This document shows, piece after piece, positions 2,534-61,168 of a DNA stretch of 64,000 nt. Position 1 is the stretch's first letter. The number at the start of each line of letters is the position of its first letter. The notes beneath the pieces were generated by a model. The model saw nothing but the letters and a program-made list of their open reading frames with translations. It made no database searches and was not told where the DNA came from. Location of the stretch: assembly GCA_001797615.1 (NCBI GenBank), contig MGPV01000017.1, positions 50,019-114,018 of the forward strand, given 5' to 3'. The translations under genes and the position numbers were made by a program. Source of the stretch: Deltaproteobacteria bacterium GWC2_65_14 (lineage in GTDB: Bacteria; Desulfobacterota; Deferrimicrobia; Deferrimicrobiales; Deferrimicrobiaceae).

Positions 2534-3445
2534 CTATCCGCCGATGTCGCTGCCGGTGAGGATCCGCAGCGCCTCCCGGTACTTCCCCGCCGTGTTCTCG
2601 ATCACGTCGGGAGGAAGCTTCGGCCCGGGGGCGGTCTTGTTCCAGGACAGGGTGAGCAGGTAGTCGCGGACGAACTGCTTGTCGAAGCTCTTCTGGGGAC
2701 CGCCCGCCCTGTATTCCGCCGCCGGCCAGAACCGGGAGGAATCGGGGGTCAGCGCCTCGTCGATCCAGAGGAGCCGGCCGTCCAGGAAGCCGAACTCGAA
2801 TTTCGTGTCGGCGATGATGATTCCCTTCCCCAGGGCGTACTCGGCCGCCTTCCGGTAGAGCGTCAGGGAAATGTCCCGCGCCGCCTCGGCCGTCTCCCTC
2901 CCCAGGATTCCGCACATCCGCTCGAAGGAGATGTTCATGTCGTGCTTCCCCTTCTCCTCCTTGGTGGCGGGGGTGAAGAGCGGCTCGGGGAGCCGGGACG
3001 ACTCGACGAGCCCCGCGGGGAGCCGGATGCCGCACACCTCGACATGCTCCCGGTATTCCGCCCAGCCGGACCCCGAGAGATACCCGCGGACGACGCATTC
3101 CACGGGGAGGGGGGAGGTCTTCCGGCAGAGCATCGAACGGCCGGCGAGCAGCTCCGCGTGAGGCCTGGCGGCAGGCGGGTATTCCCGCGGGTCCACGGAG
3201 AGCATGTGGTTCGGGACCACGTCCGAGAGCTTCCGGAACCAGAAGGCGGAGATCTGCGTGAGGACCTTCCCCTTCCCGGGAATCCCGTTGGGTAGGACGA
3301 CGTCGAAGGCGGAGATCCGGTCGGAGGCCACCAGGAGCAGCTTGCCGTCCGTCTCGTAGATGTCCCGGACCTTCCCCCGCGCGAGCAACGTCAGTCCCGC
3401 AAGTTTCGTCTCGACGACCGCCTGCCTTGCCATAGGATGTCCCAC
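2534..3445 (-). CDS. purC: Phosphoribosylaminoimidazole-succinocarboxamide synthase (SAICAR synthetase).
   Basis: 303-aa ORF. RGKVRDIYE...LLLVASDRISAFD is the canonical PurC N-terminal motif. Confidence 0.88.
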   Translation of the reverse strand: MGHPMARQAVVETKLAGLTLLARGKVRDIYETDGKLLLVASDRISAFDVVLPNGIPGKGKVLTQISAFWFRKLSDVVPNHMLSVDPREYPPAARPHAELLAGRSMLCRKTSPLPVECVVRGYLSGSGWAEYREHVEVCGIRLPAGLVESSRLPEPLFTPATKEEKGKHDMNISFERMCGILGRETAEAARDISLTLYRKAAEYALGKGIIIADTKFEFGFLDGRLLWIDEALTPDSSRFWPAAEYRAGGPQKSFDKQFVRDYLLTLSWNKTAPGPKLPPDVIENTAGKYREALRILTGSDIGG

Positions 3446-8633: not shown

Positions 8634-8729
8634 TGGCGGAAGCGTGAGGGAATCGAACCCCCCGGAGACATTGCTGCCTCCCGGCCGGATTTGAAGTCCG
8701 GGAGGGCCACCAGCGCCCTATCCGCTTCC
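8634..8729 (-). tRNA. selC: tRNA-Sec (selenocysteine tRNA, anticodon UCA).
   Basis: The reverse complement reads GGAAGCGG...CCGGACTTCAAATCCGG...GGTTCGATTCCC...CGCTTCCGCCA. The anticodon arm CUGGACUUCAAAUCCAG-like is identical in loop sequence to E. coli selC, with anticodon TCA. It has a long variable arm and a ~95-nt length with encoded CCA. Confidence 0.85.
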
Positions 8730-31087: not shown

Positions 31088-31789
31088 ATGCCGCCTGTCA
31101 AGATCCGCTGGTTCGGTCATTCCGGCTTCTCCATCCAGGACCCCTCGGGGAAGACGGTGCTGGTGGACCCGTGGTTCCAGGGAAACCCCACCGCCCCGGG
31201 CGACATGAAAGAGGTGACCAGGGCGGAGTTCATCCTGATCACCCACGACCACTTCGACCATGCGTCGGACGTGCCTGCGCTCGCACGGCAGACCGGCGCG
31301 CTCGTCGTAGCAATCTTCGAGGTGGCCGGGGATCTCAAAGCCCGGGGAGTTCCCGAGTCCCAGCTGCTCCATGGCGGGATCGGAATGAACATCGGGGGAA
31401 CCGTCGTGCTCGACGGATTCTCCTTCACGATGACGGAGGCCCGCCACTCCTGCACGCTGGGCTCACCCGCCGGCTACGTGATCCAGACCCCCTCGGGCGT
31501 CACCCTCTACCACTCCGGGGACACCGGGATCCTCCCCGGCATGGCGCTGACCGGGGAGCTCTTCTCGATCGACGTCGCGATCCTGCCGATCGGATCGGTC
31601 TTCACGATGGACTACCGGCAGGCTGCCCGGGCGGCGTCCCTCCTGAAGGCGAAGACGGTGGTCCCGATGCACTACGGGACCTTCCCGATCCTGGAGCCGA
31701 ACGCGGACCGGTTCGTCGCGGAGATGAAGAGGACGGCCCCGGGAACGCGGGTGATCGTCCTCTCCCCCGGGGAGGAAGCCTCGGTCTGA
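31088..31789 (+). CDS. Metal-dependent hydrolase of the metallo-beta-lactamase fold (UPF0173-like).
   Basis: MPPVKIRWFGHSGF.., the zinc motif ITHDHFDH, then HSGDTG and PMHYGTF. Confidence 0.8.
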   Translation: MPPVKIRWFGHSGFSIQDPSGKTVLVDPWFQGNPTAPGDMKEVTRAEFILITHDHFDHASDVPALARQTGALVVAIFEVAGDLKARGVPESQLLHGGIGMNIGGTVVLDGFSFTMTEARHSCTLGSPAGYVIQTPSGVTLYHSGDTGILPGMALTGELFSIDVAILPIGSVFTMDYRQAARAASLLKAKTVVPMHYGTFPILEPNADRFVAEMKRTAPGTRVIVLSPGEEASV

Positions 31790-31962
31790 CCCGGGCCGCC
31801 CGTATCCAGGCCCGTCCCGATTGCGCTCGGATCGGCTTCGTCGCCTCGGAGAAACTCTCCGCGATAAAGGGACCCTGGCTCGCGGGGGGAATCCCCTCGG
31901 CTACGCTCGCGATCTGCGCCCGCTCGCTGCCGTTCCGCTCGCCGCAAGCTGCACCCTGTTGT

Positions 31963-32007
31963 GGGGACACTCCTGTGTTCTTCGCGGAATACACCAGGAA
32001 TGTCCCC
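31963..32007. repeat. Palindromic hairpin element GGGGACACTCCTG-N19-CAGGAATGTCCCC (copy 1, intergenic).
   Basis: Read directly. A 13-bp stem with one mismatch and a 19-nt loop. A second copy with the same architecture lies inside clpB at about 59536..59585. Confidence 0.6.
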
Positions 32008-32039
32008 GCCGCCTCGTCGACTCCCCCCACAGCGCTGCG

Positions 32040-32159
32040 GGTCCCCGGTTGCCGGCAAAGCAGCCGCAGGAGGGTGGGCGGAGTGAGGTAAAGCGCAGCC
32101 AAAGCGTGCGTCCTCCAAGGCGAGCCACGAACGCAGCCCCCCTCCGAGGATGCGGAGCC
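32040..32159. repeat. ~120-nt intergenic repeat, copy A, with conserved termini GGTCCCCGGTTGCCGGC...GCAGG and GCAGCCCCCCTCCGAGGnnnCGGAGCC.
   Basis: It aligns with a second copy at about 46697..46809 (upstream of dusB) in the same orientation. The termini are nearly identical and the middle is divergent. It contains a conserved small hairpin CTCCG-N6-CGGAG. Confidence 0.55.
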
Positions 32160-32211
32160 GTCACCGTGGTCCCCCGCGAGCCAGGGGCCTCTTCCGGGAA
32201 GGGCGGGGGGT

Positions 32212-33147
32212 TCAGCCCAGGCGTTCGGCGACCGCGGCCATCAGCAGCGGGAAGAGGATCTCGTGCGGTCCGATCAGGTGGTATCCCTTCCCGCCGGCCC
32301 GGGTCGGCCGCGACACGACGTTCACGTCCGGGCGGTAGTGCCGGATGAAGTCCATGTTCACCGTGGTGATCCGGGACAGCGGTTTGCCGAGATTCCGGGC
32401 GACCGAGACGGCCTTGAGGAAGACCTCCGGCAGGATCACCGCGGAGCCGACGTTCAGGTAGACCCCTCCCTGCAGCCGGCAGACCATTCCGCAGAAGATC
32501 CGGAAGTCCCGGAGCGAGGCCTCCCCCGACGCCGCGCCGTCCGCCTCGGGGTGCATGTGGACGATGTCGGCCCCCAGGCAGACATGGACGGTCACCGGAA
32601 CGCGGAGCTTCCAGGCCTGCGCAAGCAGGGAGCGGTCCCGGTGCGGCGCCCGGGAGCCCGCGATCGCCCTCCCGACGGCGGCGCCGTACCCCAGCCCGTC
32701 GCGAACCCCGTCCGCCACGGCGGCGTGGATGAACCGCGCCGTCTCCTTCGCCATCCCGAACGACCCGTCCCGGAGCCGCTCGGCCACGTCTTCGGAGGTC
32801 TTCCCCGCCAGGGCAAGCTCCGTGTCGTGGATCACTCCGGCCCCGTTCATCGCCACTCCGGTGAAAAGCCCCTCCGAAAGCCCCTGGAGCAGGAGGGGGG
32901 AGAGCCCCACCTTGATGAAGTGGGCGCCGATCCCGAGAAGGACGGGGGCGTTTTGCCTCCTCGCGCGCGCGATCGCGACCGCTACCGCGCGGAAGTCCCC
33001 CGCGGCGAGGTAGCCGGGAAGTCCGTCCAGGAACTCCCCGAACGTCATTCCCTTTCGCACGGGAGCGGCGAACCCCCGCAGGGAGACCTTGCTTTTCCGG
33101 GAACGGAGCGACTCCCGGCGCAGCCGGGAGAGATCGACCTCCTTCAT
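32212..33147 (-). CDS. Hypothetical conserved protein (311 aa) translationally coupled to gmhA.
   Basis: The start MKEVDLSRL overlaps the gmhA stop (ATGA). Gly-rich motifs GIGAHFIKVG and VAMNGAGVIHD are present, but I cannot assign a family. The N-terminal 500 aa of the 813-aa track ORF is artefact. Confidence 0.55.
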   Translation of the reverse strand: MKEVDLSRLRRESLRSRKSKVSLRGFAAPVRKGMTFGEFLDGLPGYLAAGDFRAVAVAIARARRQNAPVLLGIGAHFIKVGLSPLLLQGLSEGLFTGVAMNGAGVIHDTELALAGKTSEDVAERLRDGSFGMAKETARFIHAAVADGVRDGLGYGAAVGRAIAGSRAPHRDRSLLAQAWKLRVPVTVHVCLGADIVHMHPEADGAASGEASLRDFRIFCGMVCRLQGGVYLNVGSAVILPEVFLKAVSVARNLGKPLSRITTVNMDFIRHYRPDVNVVSRPTRAGGKGYHLIGPHEILFPLLMAAVAERLG

Positions 33148-46465: not shown

Positions 46466-46696
46466 TCCTTCCTCTCCTTGTTGTGTGATGAACGCCGTGA
46501 CGGGGGGATCTCCCCCGGAATCCGGACGAAAACGGAACGAAACCGTGCGCCGCAGGTTCCTGCCGGGCACATTAAACCGTCCTTGAATACCACGACTCCC
46601 CCCCACCGTCAAGGGGAAAACCGGCCGCCCAGACCCATTCCCGATGGAGCACACTCCGCGAAGGATGCCGGAGAGGGACCCCGGCTCGCGGGGGAG

Positions 46697-46809
46697 GGTC
46701 CCCGGTTGCCGGCGGAGCTGCCGCAGGAGGGGGGATGAGCGGAGATAAAAAGATTGATCCGCGGGCGGAGGGCGGGCGAAGCGAAGCCCCCCTCCGAGGC
46801 GGCGGAGCC
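46697..46809. repeat. ~113-nt intergenic repeat, copy B (upstream of dusB), homologous to copy A at 32040..32159.
   Basis: GGTCCCCGGTTGCCGGCGGAGCTGCCGCAGGAGGGG...GCGAAGCCCCCCTCCGAGGCGGCGGAGCC, with the same termini and orientation as copy A. Confidence 0.55.
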
Positions 46810-46866
46810 CTCTCCGGAAACCCACGAGACGGGGGCAGCGGCGCGGCGGAGTGATATAGTTGGGGG

Positions 46867-58373: not shown

Positions 58374-58515
58374 GCGCAGCCCATATCAAACGCTGTTTTT
58401 TTTACGCTACCGCCCGGAGGAGCCTTTGTCAAGCGTTGGGAACAACCTTGTGTTGGGAACAACCTTGTTGCGAACAACCTTCGGGAACAGGATGGCGGCG
58501 GGCAGGGATCGCTTG

Positions 58516-61134
58516 TCAGGCAGGTCCGCGGAACCGGAACCCGGAGGCTTCGTCCGGATCCACAAGAACGGCGTCTCCATCCGAAAATTCCCCCTTGAGG
58601 ATGCGGAGAGCCAGCGGGTCCTCGAGATGCTTCGCGATCGCCCTCCGCAGCGGCCTCGCGCCGAAGGTAGGATCGTACCCAAGCTCCGCGATCCTCTCCC
58701 TGGCGGCATCCGAGAGCTCGACGGTGATCTTCCGGTCGGCAAGACGGGCGTTGAGCTCCCGGAGCATGATCCCAACGATCCGCGCAAGCTCCCCCTTTCC
58801 CAGGGAGCGGAACAGGACGATCTCGTCGATCCGGTTCAAAAATTCCGGGCGGAATTCCCGGTGCAGCTCCTCCATCACCTTCTCCCGGATCGCCTCCTCA
58901 CCCGTCCCGTAGAGCTCCCGGATCCAGTGCGATCCGACGTTCGAGGTGAGGATCGCCACGGTGTTCCGGAAGTCGACGGTCCGTCCCTTCCCGTCGGTGA
59001 GCCGGCCGTCCTCGAGGACCTGCAGGAGGAGGTTGAAGACGTCCCGGTGCGCCTTTTCGATCTCGTCGAACAGGACGACGGTGTACGGCTTCCGCCGGAC
59101 CGCCTCGGTCAGCGCCCCGCCCTCCTCGTACCCCACGTACCCGGGGGGCGCGCCGATCATCCGGGCGACCGAGTGCTTTTCCATGTACTCGGACATGTCC
59201 AGTCGGACCATCGCCGCCTCGTCGTCGAAGAGAAACTGGGCAAGCGCCCGCGCCAGTTCCGTCTTGCCGACCCCGGTCGGCCCCAGGAAGAGGAACGACC
59301 CGATCGGCCGTCTCGGGTCCTTCAGCCCGGACTTCGCCCGCCGGACGGCGTTCGAGACGAGCCGGACCGCCTCGTCCTGCCCCACGACCCGCTCGGCGAG
59401 CCGTTCCTCCATCCGGAGCAGCTTCTCCACCTCCGCCTCGACCAGCCGGGAGACCGGGATGCCGGTCCACCGGGAGACGACCTGGGCGATATCCTCCTCG
59501 TCCACCTCCTCCTTCAGGAGGCGCCCCTCCGCTTTGGGGGGGACACTCCTGTTCCCATCGGCGAGAAAACCAGGAGTGTCCCCCCGCAGGGCTTCCGCCT
59601 CCCGCTGCAGCGCCGGAAGGATGGAATACTTCAGCTCCGAGGCCCGCTCGAGGTTTCCCTCCCGCTCCGCCCGCTGCATCTCGGAGAGCGCCCGCTCGAT
59701 CCTCTCCTTCACCTCGCGGCTCTTCCCGATCGACCGCTTCTCCTCCTCCCAGCGGGAACGAAGCTCACCGGCCCTCCCGGAGAGCCGGGAAAGCTCCTCC
59801 TCGATACGCGCCAGCCGCTGGGCGGAGACCGGGTCGGTCTCCTTCGTGAGGGCCTGCTTTTCGATCCGGAGCTGGGTGATCCGCCGCTCCACCTCATCGA
59901 TTCCGGTCGGGACGGAGTCGATCTCGATCTTGAGTTTCGAGGCCGCCTCGTCCATGAGGTCGATCGCCTTGTCCGGCAGAAAGCGGTCGGGGATGTACCG
60001 GTGGGAGAGGGTGGCGGCGGCGACGAGGGCGGAATCCTTGATCCGCACGCCGTGGTGGACCTCGTATCGCCCTTTCAGCCCCCGCAGGATGGCGATCGCG
60101 TCCTCCACGGAAGGCTCCGGGACCATGACCGGCTGGAAGCGCCTCTCCAGCGCCGCGTCCTTCTCCACGTGCTTCCGGTACTCGTCGAAGGTGGTCGCGC
60201 CGACGCAGCGGAGCTCGCCCCGGGCCAGGGCGGGCTTGAGCATGTTCGAGGCGTCCATCGCCCCTTCCGCCTTCCCGGCCCCCACCAGGGTGTGGAGCTC
60301 GTCGATGAAGAGGACGACCCTCCCCTCCGCCGCGGCGATCTCCTTGAGGACCGCCTTGAGCCGGTCCTCGAACTCACCCCGGTACTTCGCCCCGGCGATC
60401 AGCGCCCCCATGTCCAGCGCCAGCACCCGCTTGTCCCGAAGCCCCTCCGGGACATCTCCCGAGACGATCCGCTGGGCCAGCCCTTCCGCGATGGCGGTCT
60501 TCCCCACCCCCGGGTCGCCGATCAGAACGGGGTTGTTCTTGGTCCGCCGCGACAGGACCTGGATCACCCTGCGGATCTCGTCGTCCCTCCCGATGACGGG
60601 GTCGAGCTTTTCCCGTCGGGCCAGCTCCGTCAGATCCCGGCAGTACTTGTCGAGGGCCTGGTACTTTGCCTCCGGGTTCTCGTCGGTGATTCGCTGCGTC
60701 CCCCGGATTCCGGTCAGGGCCGACAGCAGCGCCTCGCGGTTCGCCCCGTGCTTCCGGAGCAACCCCTCGATCTTCCCCCCCTCCGCGGCCATCGCGAGGA
60801 GGAAGTGCTCGGCGGAGAGAAACTCGTCCTTGAAGGCGTCCGCCTCGGACATCGCACGGGAAAAGAGCGGCTCCATCCGGGGGGAGAGCCCCCGGCTCAC
60901 CGCGCCGGTGACCTTCGGGAAGGACGCGGCCATCGAGGCCGCGTCGGATTCGAGGGAAGGCAGCGCCACCCCGGTGCGCGCGAAGAGGTCCCGGGCAACC
61001 CCGCCCTCCTGCCGGAGCAGCGCGAGGAAGAGATGCTCCGGCTCCACCTGGGCGTGCGCCTCGCCGGAGGCGATGCGCACCGCCTCCTGCAGCGCCTCCT
61101 GCGATTTGACGGTGAGCTTGTCGAGAGAGATCAT
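58516..61134 (-). CDS. clpB: Chaperone ClpB (Hsp104-type disaggregase; two AAA+ modules plus coiled-coil M-domain).
   Basis: 872 aa with NBD1 Walker [12 protein letters not shown]2 Walker [10 protein letters not shown], a coiled-coil M-domain and the sensor-2 GARPLRRAI. There is a ~13-aa insertion relative to E. coli ClpB near the M-domain/NBD2 junction (see findings). Confidence 0.92.
59536..59585. repeat. Palindromic hairpin element GGGGGGACACTCCTG-N19-CAGGAGTGTCCCCC (copy 2), embedded in-frame within clpB.
   Basis: Read directly: a perfect 14-bp stem with a 19-nt loop. It matches the intergenic copy at 31963..32007 in arm sequence and loop length, and in about half of the loop positions. 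Confidence 0.55.
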
Positions 61135-61168
61135 CGGGTCATCTCGTGGCGGGGTACTCTCCTCAAGA

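Follow-up and report, generated by a model that had tools for sequence, protein, structure and literature searches.

A probable REP-type hairpin read in frame within clpB and its strain-level polymorphism in Deferrimicrobiaceae

Background

Repetitive extragenic palindromic (REP)-type repeats are commonly regarded as passengers of bacterial genomes, extragenic and specific to a lineage. They flank HUH Y1 transposases of the RAYT (REP-associated tyrosine transposase) and TIRYT types, and these enzymes presumably mobilise them as single-stranded hairpins. What becomes of such a hairpin when it lies inside the coding sequence of a conserved gene? The question is raised by a stretch of 64,000 nt, hereafter called the window, from Deltaproteobacteria bacterium GWC2_65_14 of the Deferrimicrobiaceae (GenBank assembly GCA_001797615.1, contig MGPV01000017.1, positions 50,019 to 114,018). 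In this window clpB, which encodes a stress chaperone and is not strictly an essential gene, contains a palindromic hairpin read in frame, and an initial annotation had proposed that a small mobile unit, similar to REPs or to MITEs (miniature transposable elements with inverted repeats), had inserted there. Here we ask what the hairpin is, how it may have come to be translated, and what has happened at its site among related strains.

The explanation that we favour, and hold to be quite probable, is that the clpB hairpin is a REP-type repeat of the RAYT/TIRYT-associated kind which came to lie in frame at a permissive loop, and that the position has since then been a dynamic REP site. Elements of this kind are not new, and neither are in-frame REPs; the population-level variation is unusually informative, and the core of the element is shared across phyla. 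The locus offers a natural experiment in which a selfish hairpin turning into protein sequence can be traced in closely related environmental strains, among which a single codon position is found empty, filled, flipped, compound, decayed and deleted; pbpC of a different phylum contains another in-frame copy, independent of this one and read in the same frame. The 12-nt core common to several phyla, together with a link to RAYT-like genes, bears on the age and transferability of REP-RAYT partnerships. In addition, the clpB site is usable as a strain marker for Deferrimicrobiaceae populations, and it cautions that indels of conserved genes in metagenome-assembled genomes (MAGs) may derive from repeats. 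Should the states turn out to switch within populations, a chaperone would here be recoded by a new route.

Results and discussion

A perfect palindrome translated as part of ClpB

The hairpin spans 49 bases (59537-59585) and consists of a perfect 15-bp stem and a 19-nt loop; the initial annotation, which gave a perfect 14-bp stem at 59536-59585, was right about the perfect hairpin and needs correction in stem length and start. It is the sole perfect local inverted repeat of at least 13 nt in the 64-kb window. Folding of the transcript had been proposed as a check, and the 70-nt context of the hairpin, as RNA, has a folding energy of -43 kcal/mol whichever strand is taken (z = -4.7 and -5.0), with none of 200 shuffles folding as stably. 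The coding-strand sequence of the element is CGG GGG GAC ACT CCT GGT TTT CTC GCC GAT GGG AAC AGG AGT GTC CCC CCC; it is translated in frame as 17 residues of ClpB, and no stop codon occurs in it across the six frames. Aligned with the E. coli ClpB chains in the PDB (E = 4.8e-298, residues 3-861), the window protein has 13 extra residues exactly at the element, in gaps of 6 and 7, as the initial annotation had estimated, and relative to the nearest strain it has 11. In the Rfam search of the whole window tRNAs alone reach the gathering score, and at the clpB hairpin a permissive search returned eukaryotic microRNA-precursor models, all sub-threshold, as happens with any long hairpin.

Metagenome assemblies can fold back at palindromes, and the contig of one close relative (L215) starts inside one, which makes an assembly artefact worth considering, as is a chance palindrome in GC-rich coding sequence. 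We consider an artefact excluded because three contigs, from two or more assemblies, encode exactly this 872-aa protein, because the frame and the codon-position GC pattern run unbroken through the element, and because the same structure, with the same arms, is present in clpB of another species (L122). Zero matches are expected in shuffled sequence. Artefact and chance together keep a negligible probability.

Membership in a dispersed repeat family

A scan of 596 Gb, one genome per species, for the pattern GGGACAYTCCTG-N12-28-CAGGARTGTCCC gave more than 120 loci among the matches listed, where the estimated chance expectation is below 1. The core of the family is GGGGACAYTCCTG, a quasi-palindromic centre of about 19 nt, and CAGGARTGTCCCC. 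Its gammaproteobacterial form (Steroidobacteraceae, Chromatiaceae, Woeseiaceae and other bins) is aaatgGGGACATTCCTGATTT...AAATCAGGAATGTCCCcattt and that of Verrucomicrobiota and relatives is GGGACATTCCTGTCCC...GGGACAGGAATGTCCC, while MAGs of Candidatus Deferrimicrobium, Deferrimicrobiaceae and 'Deltaproteobacteria' have GGGGGACACTCCTG, the 19-nt centre GTTTTCTCGnCGAAAnAAn and CAGGAGTGTCCCCC, a form with which the window copies agree. The two sides covary at the one variable position of the stem (108 T-A, 18 C-G and 6 mismatches), and 126 of the 132 copies stay paired; the stem is upheld by compensatory change, a property by which REP membership is judged.

The Deferrimicrobiaceae copies share arms and loop consensus and lie within units of 110-170 nt whose flanks are otherwise unrelated, for example unit A1 of about 130 nt, with three arms per side, and unit A2 of about 170 nt, with long-range complementarity. 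By a codon-position GC test 131 of 134 copies fall outside true reading frames, and where open reading frames (ORFs) span Deferrimicrobiaceae copies they seem spurious, or the element abuts a gene end. The suggestion of a repeated REP/MITE-like unit is therefore borne out, since the same arms and loop design recur, nearly always extragenically, at unrelated loci in many Deferrimicrobiaceae MAGs. As to numbers per locus, the 64-kb window has two paired copies and one arm relic, related 22-kb loci have one or two copies each, and one Chromatiaceae bin has at least 15 family matches. A tblastn search of ClpB against the 120 pattern loci found no clpB, and a literature search for the arm sequences returned unrelated PCR primers only.

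Within the window the two-arm pattern matches three times, the clpB copy being counted on both strands, and the expectation from 100 dinucleotide-preserving shuffles is 0.00; no further paired copies exist in the window at up to two mismatches per arm. The second copy that had been reported at 31.8-32.2 kb is indeed present (Table 1). Rfam gave no match at 31750-32250.

With respect to taxonomic breadth, the 12-nt core GGGACAYTCCTG occurs in MAGs labelled Gammaproteobacteria, Verrucomicrobiota, Kiritimatiellia, Planctomycetota (Tepidisphaeraceae), Nitrospirales and Deferrimicrobiaceae (L001-L120). REP-type repeats are usually described as lineage-specific, and a core shared so widely is unusual for them, the phyla being the MAG labels as deposited. 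At one further locus (L021), a gene that by eye looks LUD-domain-like is followed directly at its 3' end by a compound hairpin unit (about 3150-3270); because the open frame continues into the element, the repeat may supply the C-terminal tail and stop codon of this gene.

A RAYT-like gene between family hairpins

Inspection of the intervals between paired hairpins led to a 218-aa ORF in locus L092 (157-810, minus strand) with hairpins on either side, at 112-157 and 890-937. The ORF has the motifs NHFHLV (HUH) and YVERNP, matches Y1_Tnp (Pfam PF01797) over the gathering score (E = 2.4e-13), and matches the NCBIfam model of the REP-associated tyrosine transposase, NF047646, at E = 5.9e-21 with 74.9 bits, below the cut-off of 80. 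A 71%-identical homologue in L069 (6700-7317) is bounded on both sides by GGGGACATTC...GAATGTCCCC hairpins (also written GGGGACATTCTACTTTT...AAAAGTAGAATGTCCCC), and comparison of these with other copies indicates that the conserved part of the repeat is the outer GGGGACAYTC/GARTGTCCCC. Both loci belong to gammaproteobacterial MAGs sharing the family core, so that this transposase link is observed in other phyla than that of the window, and they alone have the hairpins around a RAYT-like gene; clustering of ORFs across 120 element-bearing loci gave no recurrent neighbour and no transposase family. It is because hairpins flank a RAYT-like gene in these two MAGs that we file the element as REP-type.

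How does the family compare with known systems? Like the REP/REPIN-RAYT repeats of E. coli, Pseudomonas and Stenotrophomonas, it consists of short palindromic hairpins that are probably repeated through the genome, for the most part outside genes and often right after stop codons, occurring as singles and in clustered or nested arrays, with hairpins of the same core around a single Y1 HUH transposase gene (L092, L069). It differs from them in its longer unit (45-49 nt), which is a near-perfect palindrome, in its compound forms with two or three arms per side, in the 12-nt core common to several phyla, and in that the transposase is unseen in the loci of the source lineage. There is also a likeness to the TIRtron/TIRYT repeats, since RAYT-like TIRYT genes are flanked by repeats sharing the motif GGGGWSAS (Di Nocera 2013, PMC3733652): the arm start GGGGACAC fits this motif, the gammaproteobacterial GGGGACAT fits 7/8 of its positions, and the repeats, moderately abundant as singles, dimers and clusters, flank a RAYT-like gene, here in L092 and L069. 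However, the published TIRtron families come from other species with no Deferrimicrobiaceae example. MITEs such as Correia and Nezha are likewise small, non-autonomous, repeated and sometimes in frame, whereas the clpB site has neither target-site duplication nor DDE-type terminal repeats and the enzyme linked with the family is an HUH Y1.

Presence and absence among closely related strains

Over 6.7 kb the window and the groundwater scaffold ANAN16-1_scaffold_678 are 100% identical, the window's ClpB is 97% identical to the protein P0001, and the named ClpB matches are from Deferrimicrobiaceae; a metagenome scan for ClpB relatives had, among the matches listed, generic ClpBs at 53-63% identity and a single useful locus. 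We aligned 120 ClpB homologues (78-97% identity) and built a tree from the protein outside the site. Outgroups have a linker of 10-14 residues, e.g. EALSRAVSAPGEGG. Within one ClpB subclade, short, long, relic and deleted alleles are interleaved on the tree. The short alleles have a linker of the ancestral type, e.g. ESLAGKASGGSEG; the long ones have 20-35 residues that include the translated arms (RGDTP..., with ...RSVPP or ...GVSP); P0040, P0042, P0053, P0054 and P0059 are relics with the left arm only; and P0069, a deletion allele, is 100% identical in amino acids to P0033 outside the site. Long and short alleles form sister pairs in proteins that are hardly different elsewhere, the amino-acid identity outside the site being 98.9% for the window and P0001, 97.8% for P0024 and P0057, 100% for P0061 and P0071, and 98.9% and 99.1% for P0038 and P0047 against P0072.

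At the nucleotide level, the window and L121 (which encodes P0001) are 98.9% and 99.2% identical on the two flanks of segments of 56 nt and 23 nt, and L208 (P0061) and L209 (P0071), 99.85-99.88% identical over 22.6 kb, have 77 nt and 21 nt at the site. The nearest single-nucleotide polymorphisms (SNPs) lie more than 100-240 nt off in the first comparison and more than 600 nt off in the second, with no cluster adjoining either segment. Neither comparison has a target-site duplication; 21-23 nt are replaced. The in-frame insertion put forward by the initial annotation holds in so far as the ORF is intact and the nearest strain, at about 99% nucleotide identity, is element-free, has the short linker and is otherwise collinear; what did not hold is the notion of simple insertion, since 56 nt replace 23 nt. 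The ortholog alignment, proposed at the same time, places the extra residues at the element as had been supposed, with the qualification that related elements occupy the same codon position in many relatives.

A derivation of the short L121 allele from the long one by deletion was considered and rejected, because in the best alignment strains with 99% identity would have to differ here by two deletions and by some 35% substitutions. By contrast with that case, P0040 looks as if it had arisen from a P0022-type allele by loss of 45 nt between short CCGGG repeats. All long alleles, across species, are joined on the left as L-[R/S]-GDTP and flanked on the right by ...[EG]G-RLL, and P0002 has an insert of the same length as that of the window with its arms decayed. 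What is new here is the polymorphism among strains, in which genomes 99-99.9% identical differ by a bounded replacement, and the range of forms (simple, compound, decayed and deleted) that one ClpB subclade has at a single codon position.

Two orientations at one codon position

New as well is that the element is found in either orientation, in frame both ways. The clpB of L122 (P0006), 81% identical in nucleotides to that of the window, has identical arms at the same codon positions, and the two loops agree at 16/19 positions as reverse complements and at 11/19 in the forward sense. In L204 (P0036) the element comprises a 23-nt centre with two arms to its left and one to its right; in L208 (P0061) there is a single left arm, then the centre as its reverse complement, then a pair of right arms. 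The two elements are identical at 71/78 positions as reverse complements and at 54/78 forward. Forward (P0033, P0038, P0026, P0036) and inverted (P0061, P0029, P0062) elements, in frame and stop-free at the same codon position, are interleaved among ClpBs that are 90-97% identical, which implies that the orientation changed more than once, by in-place flip or by re-insertion.

Such a pattern suggests a recoding intragenic inverton, in which a recombinase or a Y1 enzyme would flip the segment and so phase-vary the loop peptides of ClpB; from Bacteroides a recoding intragenic inverton of 57 bp has been documented (Chanin et al., bioRxiv 10.1101/2023.03.11.532203), and in clpB, too, a segment of about 50-77 nt lies between inverted repeats and is read through both ways, one compound element being present in both orientations and the two states being interleaved in the subclade. 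We nevertheless consider an inverton improbable. The orientations are seen in different lineages, no recombinase candidate adjoins the site, and the inverted repeats belong, as arms, to a dispersed repeat whose hairpins stand by the hundred in intergenic DNA, where flipping would have no coding meaning; moreover, a centre of 19 nt, as the simple form has, is very little DNA for a synapsed recombinase to act on, and high-GC DNA is poor in stop codons, so that open frames both ways are expected by survivorship.

The arms deserve a closer look. Between the window and P0006 all 30 arm nucleotides are identical despite a synonymous-site identity of 0.63, and the third positions within the arms match at 10/10 (p ~0.01). 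The window arms are either young, homogenised against other copies, or constrained, because they are identical to the P0006 arms while those of P0002 have decayed. Constraint would be expected if the hairpin were a selected cis-acting structure, serving for pausing, for mRNA stability or a temperature response, or for the binding of a heat-shock regulator. The great stability of the hairpin (-43 kcal/mol, z ~-5), an arm conservation above the synonymous background, and related hairpins in the htrA-clpB spacer of several relatives, in a dnaK-hsp20-dnaJ-clpB cluster, are consistent with this, and the arms' CACTC...GAGTG may loosely resemble the half-sites of CIRCE. A cis-acting role is nonetheless very unlikely, given that near-identical strains are hairpin-free, that the hairpin is decayed or deleted in many lineages, and that the family is scattered beside unrelated genes and matches no Rfam family.

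The site within the chaperone

In an AlphaFold2 model of ClpB, computed from a 48-sequence alignment, residues 495-515 form the last helix of the M domain, and coil extends from there to about 541. The predicted local distance difference test (pLDDT) score is below 50 at 519-536 and averages 26 in the block 521-530, whereas confidence in the M domain is reasonable (blocks of 73-88 across residues 360-510). The element-encoded peptide is thus predicted to sit in a disordered loop after the last M-domain helix. The insert begins 13 residues past the tyrosine that aligns with Y503 of E. coli ClpB, a key M-domain residue for coupling to DnaK.

A bolder idea, which we think improbable, is that the clpB site is a maintained three-state recoding cassette (absent, forward, inverted), made out of a REP, whose polymorphism is kept across species by selection. 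If that were true, fast switching would alter a loop 13 residues past the Y503-aligned residue, and the cassette would be a domesticated repeat that generates protein-level variation in a core chaperone.

Origin and turnover of the insert

Under the REP-type explanation that we favour, one copy of the family would have become part of the clpB reading frame and been tolerated in an unstructured surface loop after the last coiled-coil helix of the M domain, because the loop is unstructured, the net length is a multiple of three and the element is stop-free in six frames. The codon position would from then on have been a long-standing REP site of the subclade, passing through short, simple or compound, flipped, decayed and deleted states, with a turnover that would outpace point substitution. 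The insert is presumably neutral, and flipping may proceed via recombination or template switching between the inverted arms.

Several observations weigh against this explanation. The classical REP tag, GTAG or CGTC, is not present in the family, whose flanks read aaatgGGGACA... or agg/gggGGGACA..., a further difference from the REP/REPIN-RAYT repeats. Two paired copies are all that is seen in 64 kb of the source genome. The Y1 transposase is absent from the window and from about 340 kb of Deferrimicrobiaceae loci, and mobilisation by a cognate Y1 enzyme in the source genome is for this reason something that we infer. The ClpB model is mediocre overall, with a mean pLDDT of 65.6. Finally, a replacement lacking target-site duplication, together with one shared left junction L-[R/S]-GDTP, is fitted better by a single old insertion and allele exchange than by repeated transposition.

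The last point leads to the rival that must be taken most seriously, to which we give a substantial though somewhat less than even chance: one ancient insertion into clpB of the subclade ancestor, followed by shuffling of alleles through short-patch homologous recombination. Long and short alleles would since have coexisted and been passed among strains and species, with flips and renewal of the arms from time to time, and the patchiness seen today would owe nothing to fresh transposition or excision in clpB. This rival contests active turnover alone and leaves the identity of the element untouched. The junctions common to all long alleles and the replacement without target-site duplication are what it would predict, the P0002 insert, of the window's length with decayed arms, looks like an old allele, and the short alleles resemble the outgroup linker and hence are no deletion products. 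Yet imported SNPs are absent beside the segment, so that the donors would have to be near-identical strains; the arms of the window and P0006 are perfect and identical at 37% synonymous divergence while those of P0002 decayed; the orientation varies among ClpBs that are 94-97% identical; and the neighbouring spacers vary in their repeats among strains 99-99.95% identical. Neither simple transposition and excision nor recombination with a diverged donor fits the combination of a bounded replacement between alleles of near-identical backbone and a left junction common to several species.

A second in-frame copy and published precedents

By the codon-position GC test, three of the 134 copies (~2%) are truly in frame, in clpB of the window, in clpB of L122 and in pbpC of L078. 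The last is a family hairpin at 299-350 of a Steroidobacteraceae MAG contig (DATHJZ010000136.1), in the gene of the penicillin-binding protein PBP1C, whose ORF is a TIGR02073 match (E = 2.8e-121). Locally it reads ...YVGNS-RGDIPGFRVADATETRNVP-RGYSVDIIRRPRSTGSILKP, with about 13 residues added directly before the SxxK active-site motif, and the frame is that of the clpB element (GD[IT]P...R[NS]VP); the PDB alignments of this protein begin only past the insert. Searches for other proteins with element peptides gave no candidate with a 50-aa concatenated consensus and nothing at E <=10 with a 245-aa concatenation of observed peptides.

The initial annotation called such an event rarely documented, which overstates the case: in-frame intragenic REPs have already been described (Di Nocera 2013, PMC3733652), and with these and the Rickettsia palindromic elements (RPEs) the kind of event is known. 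The REP-decorated proteins include PBP1C of R. conorii, and Xanthomonas recB has different REPs at roughly one site; the published list of REP-decorated hosts does not include ClpB. In REP-decorated proteins and RPEs, as in clpB, an in-frame palindromic repeat adds some 7-30 residues to known proteins. The repeat sequences are, however, unrelated to the clpB family, and the clpB site differs in being polymorphic among 99-100% identical strains, in both orientations and with compound forms.

Features of the window and neighbouring repeats

The coordinates of the hairpins and of the features related to them are collected in Table 1.

Table 1. Features of the clpB locus and of the second hairpin, in window coordinates
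Feature	Position	Strand	Remarks
clpB, 872 aa, intact	58516..61134	-	ORF; element = residues 515-531
56-nt allele-specific segment (clpB coding positions 1548-1603)	59532..59587	-	unrelated 23-nt short-linker segment in L121
Hairpin arm GGGGGGACACTCCTG (plus-strand reading)	59537..59551	-	coding-strand distal arm, encodes ...RSVPP; 15 nt, 100% complementary
19-nt loop, coding strand GTTTTCTCGCCGATGGGAA	59552..59570	-	fits family loop consensus GTTTTCTCGnCGAAAnAAn
Hairpin arm CAGGAGTGTCCCCCC (plus-strand reading)	59571..59585	-	coding-strand proximal arm, encodes RGDTP
Degenerate solo arm GAGGAGAGTACCCC	61151..61164	-	htrA-clpB spacer
150-nt segment, sister hairpin at centre	31889..32038	.	missing from second copy of repeat X
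Sister hairpin GGGGACACTCCTG, 19 nt, CAGGAATGTCCCC	31963..32007	.	one arm mismatch; intergenic (31790-32211)

The sister hairpin is associated with a second MITE-like repeat, 'X', which has the terminal inverted repeats GGACCCTGGCTCGCGGGGG / CCCCCGCGAGCCAGGGGCC and internal blocks about 80% identical. The window has two copies of X, at 31870-32189, interrupted by the 150-nt segment, and at 46676-46830, without those 150 nt, from which it follows that the sister copy is nested inside X. The contig of a 99.1%-identical strain stops at 31867, immediately before X. Homology of the flanks of the sister copy with unit A2 of Deferrimicrobiaceae was considered and rejected, as the core hairpin alone aligns. 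In L121 a fragment of X (1-45) lies upstream of clpB, where the window has none.

The spacer between htrA and clpB varies likewise. L215, 99.95% identical to the window, has there a complete hairpin, GGGGGACACTCCTC, 22 nt, GAGGAGTGTCCCCC, with extended outer complementarity (1-75), and the sole two mismatches between the window and L215 both fall within the arm at 61151-61164; the L215 contig begins inside this hairpin, and an assembly effect is possible. Family members are also present in this spacer in L204, L206, L207 and L208, as full elements in L204, L206 and L208. The small-repeat content near clpB thus differs among strains that have hardly any point differences.

On the other side of clpB, the clpB-ispE spacer has at 58435-58481 a tandem repeat of about 16 nt with the unit AAGGTTGTTCCCAAC (coding strand), in 2.9 copies. 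It lies just upstream of a TTGACA; L121 has one copy, and ANAN16-1_678 has an N run there.

About 8 kb downstream of clpB, dnaB encodes 883 aa in the set of L204, L206, L208 and L209, with intein matches (Intein_splicing, LAGLIDADG_3) in some relatives, while the DnaB of L205 and L207 has 461-462 aa and is intein-free; this intein is another presence/absence polymorphism of a selfish element near clpB. Elsewhere in the window, a tRNA-Sec gene is found on the minus strand at 8638-8729 (Rfam RF01852, 74.4 bits).

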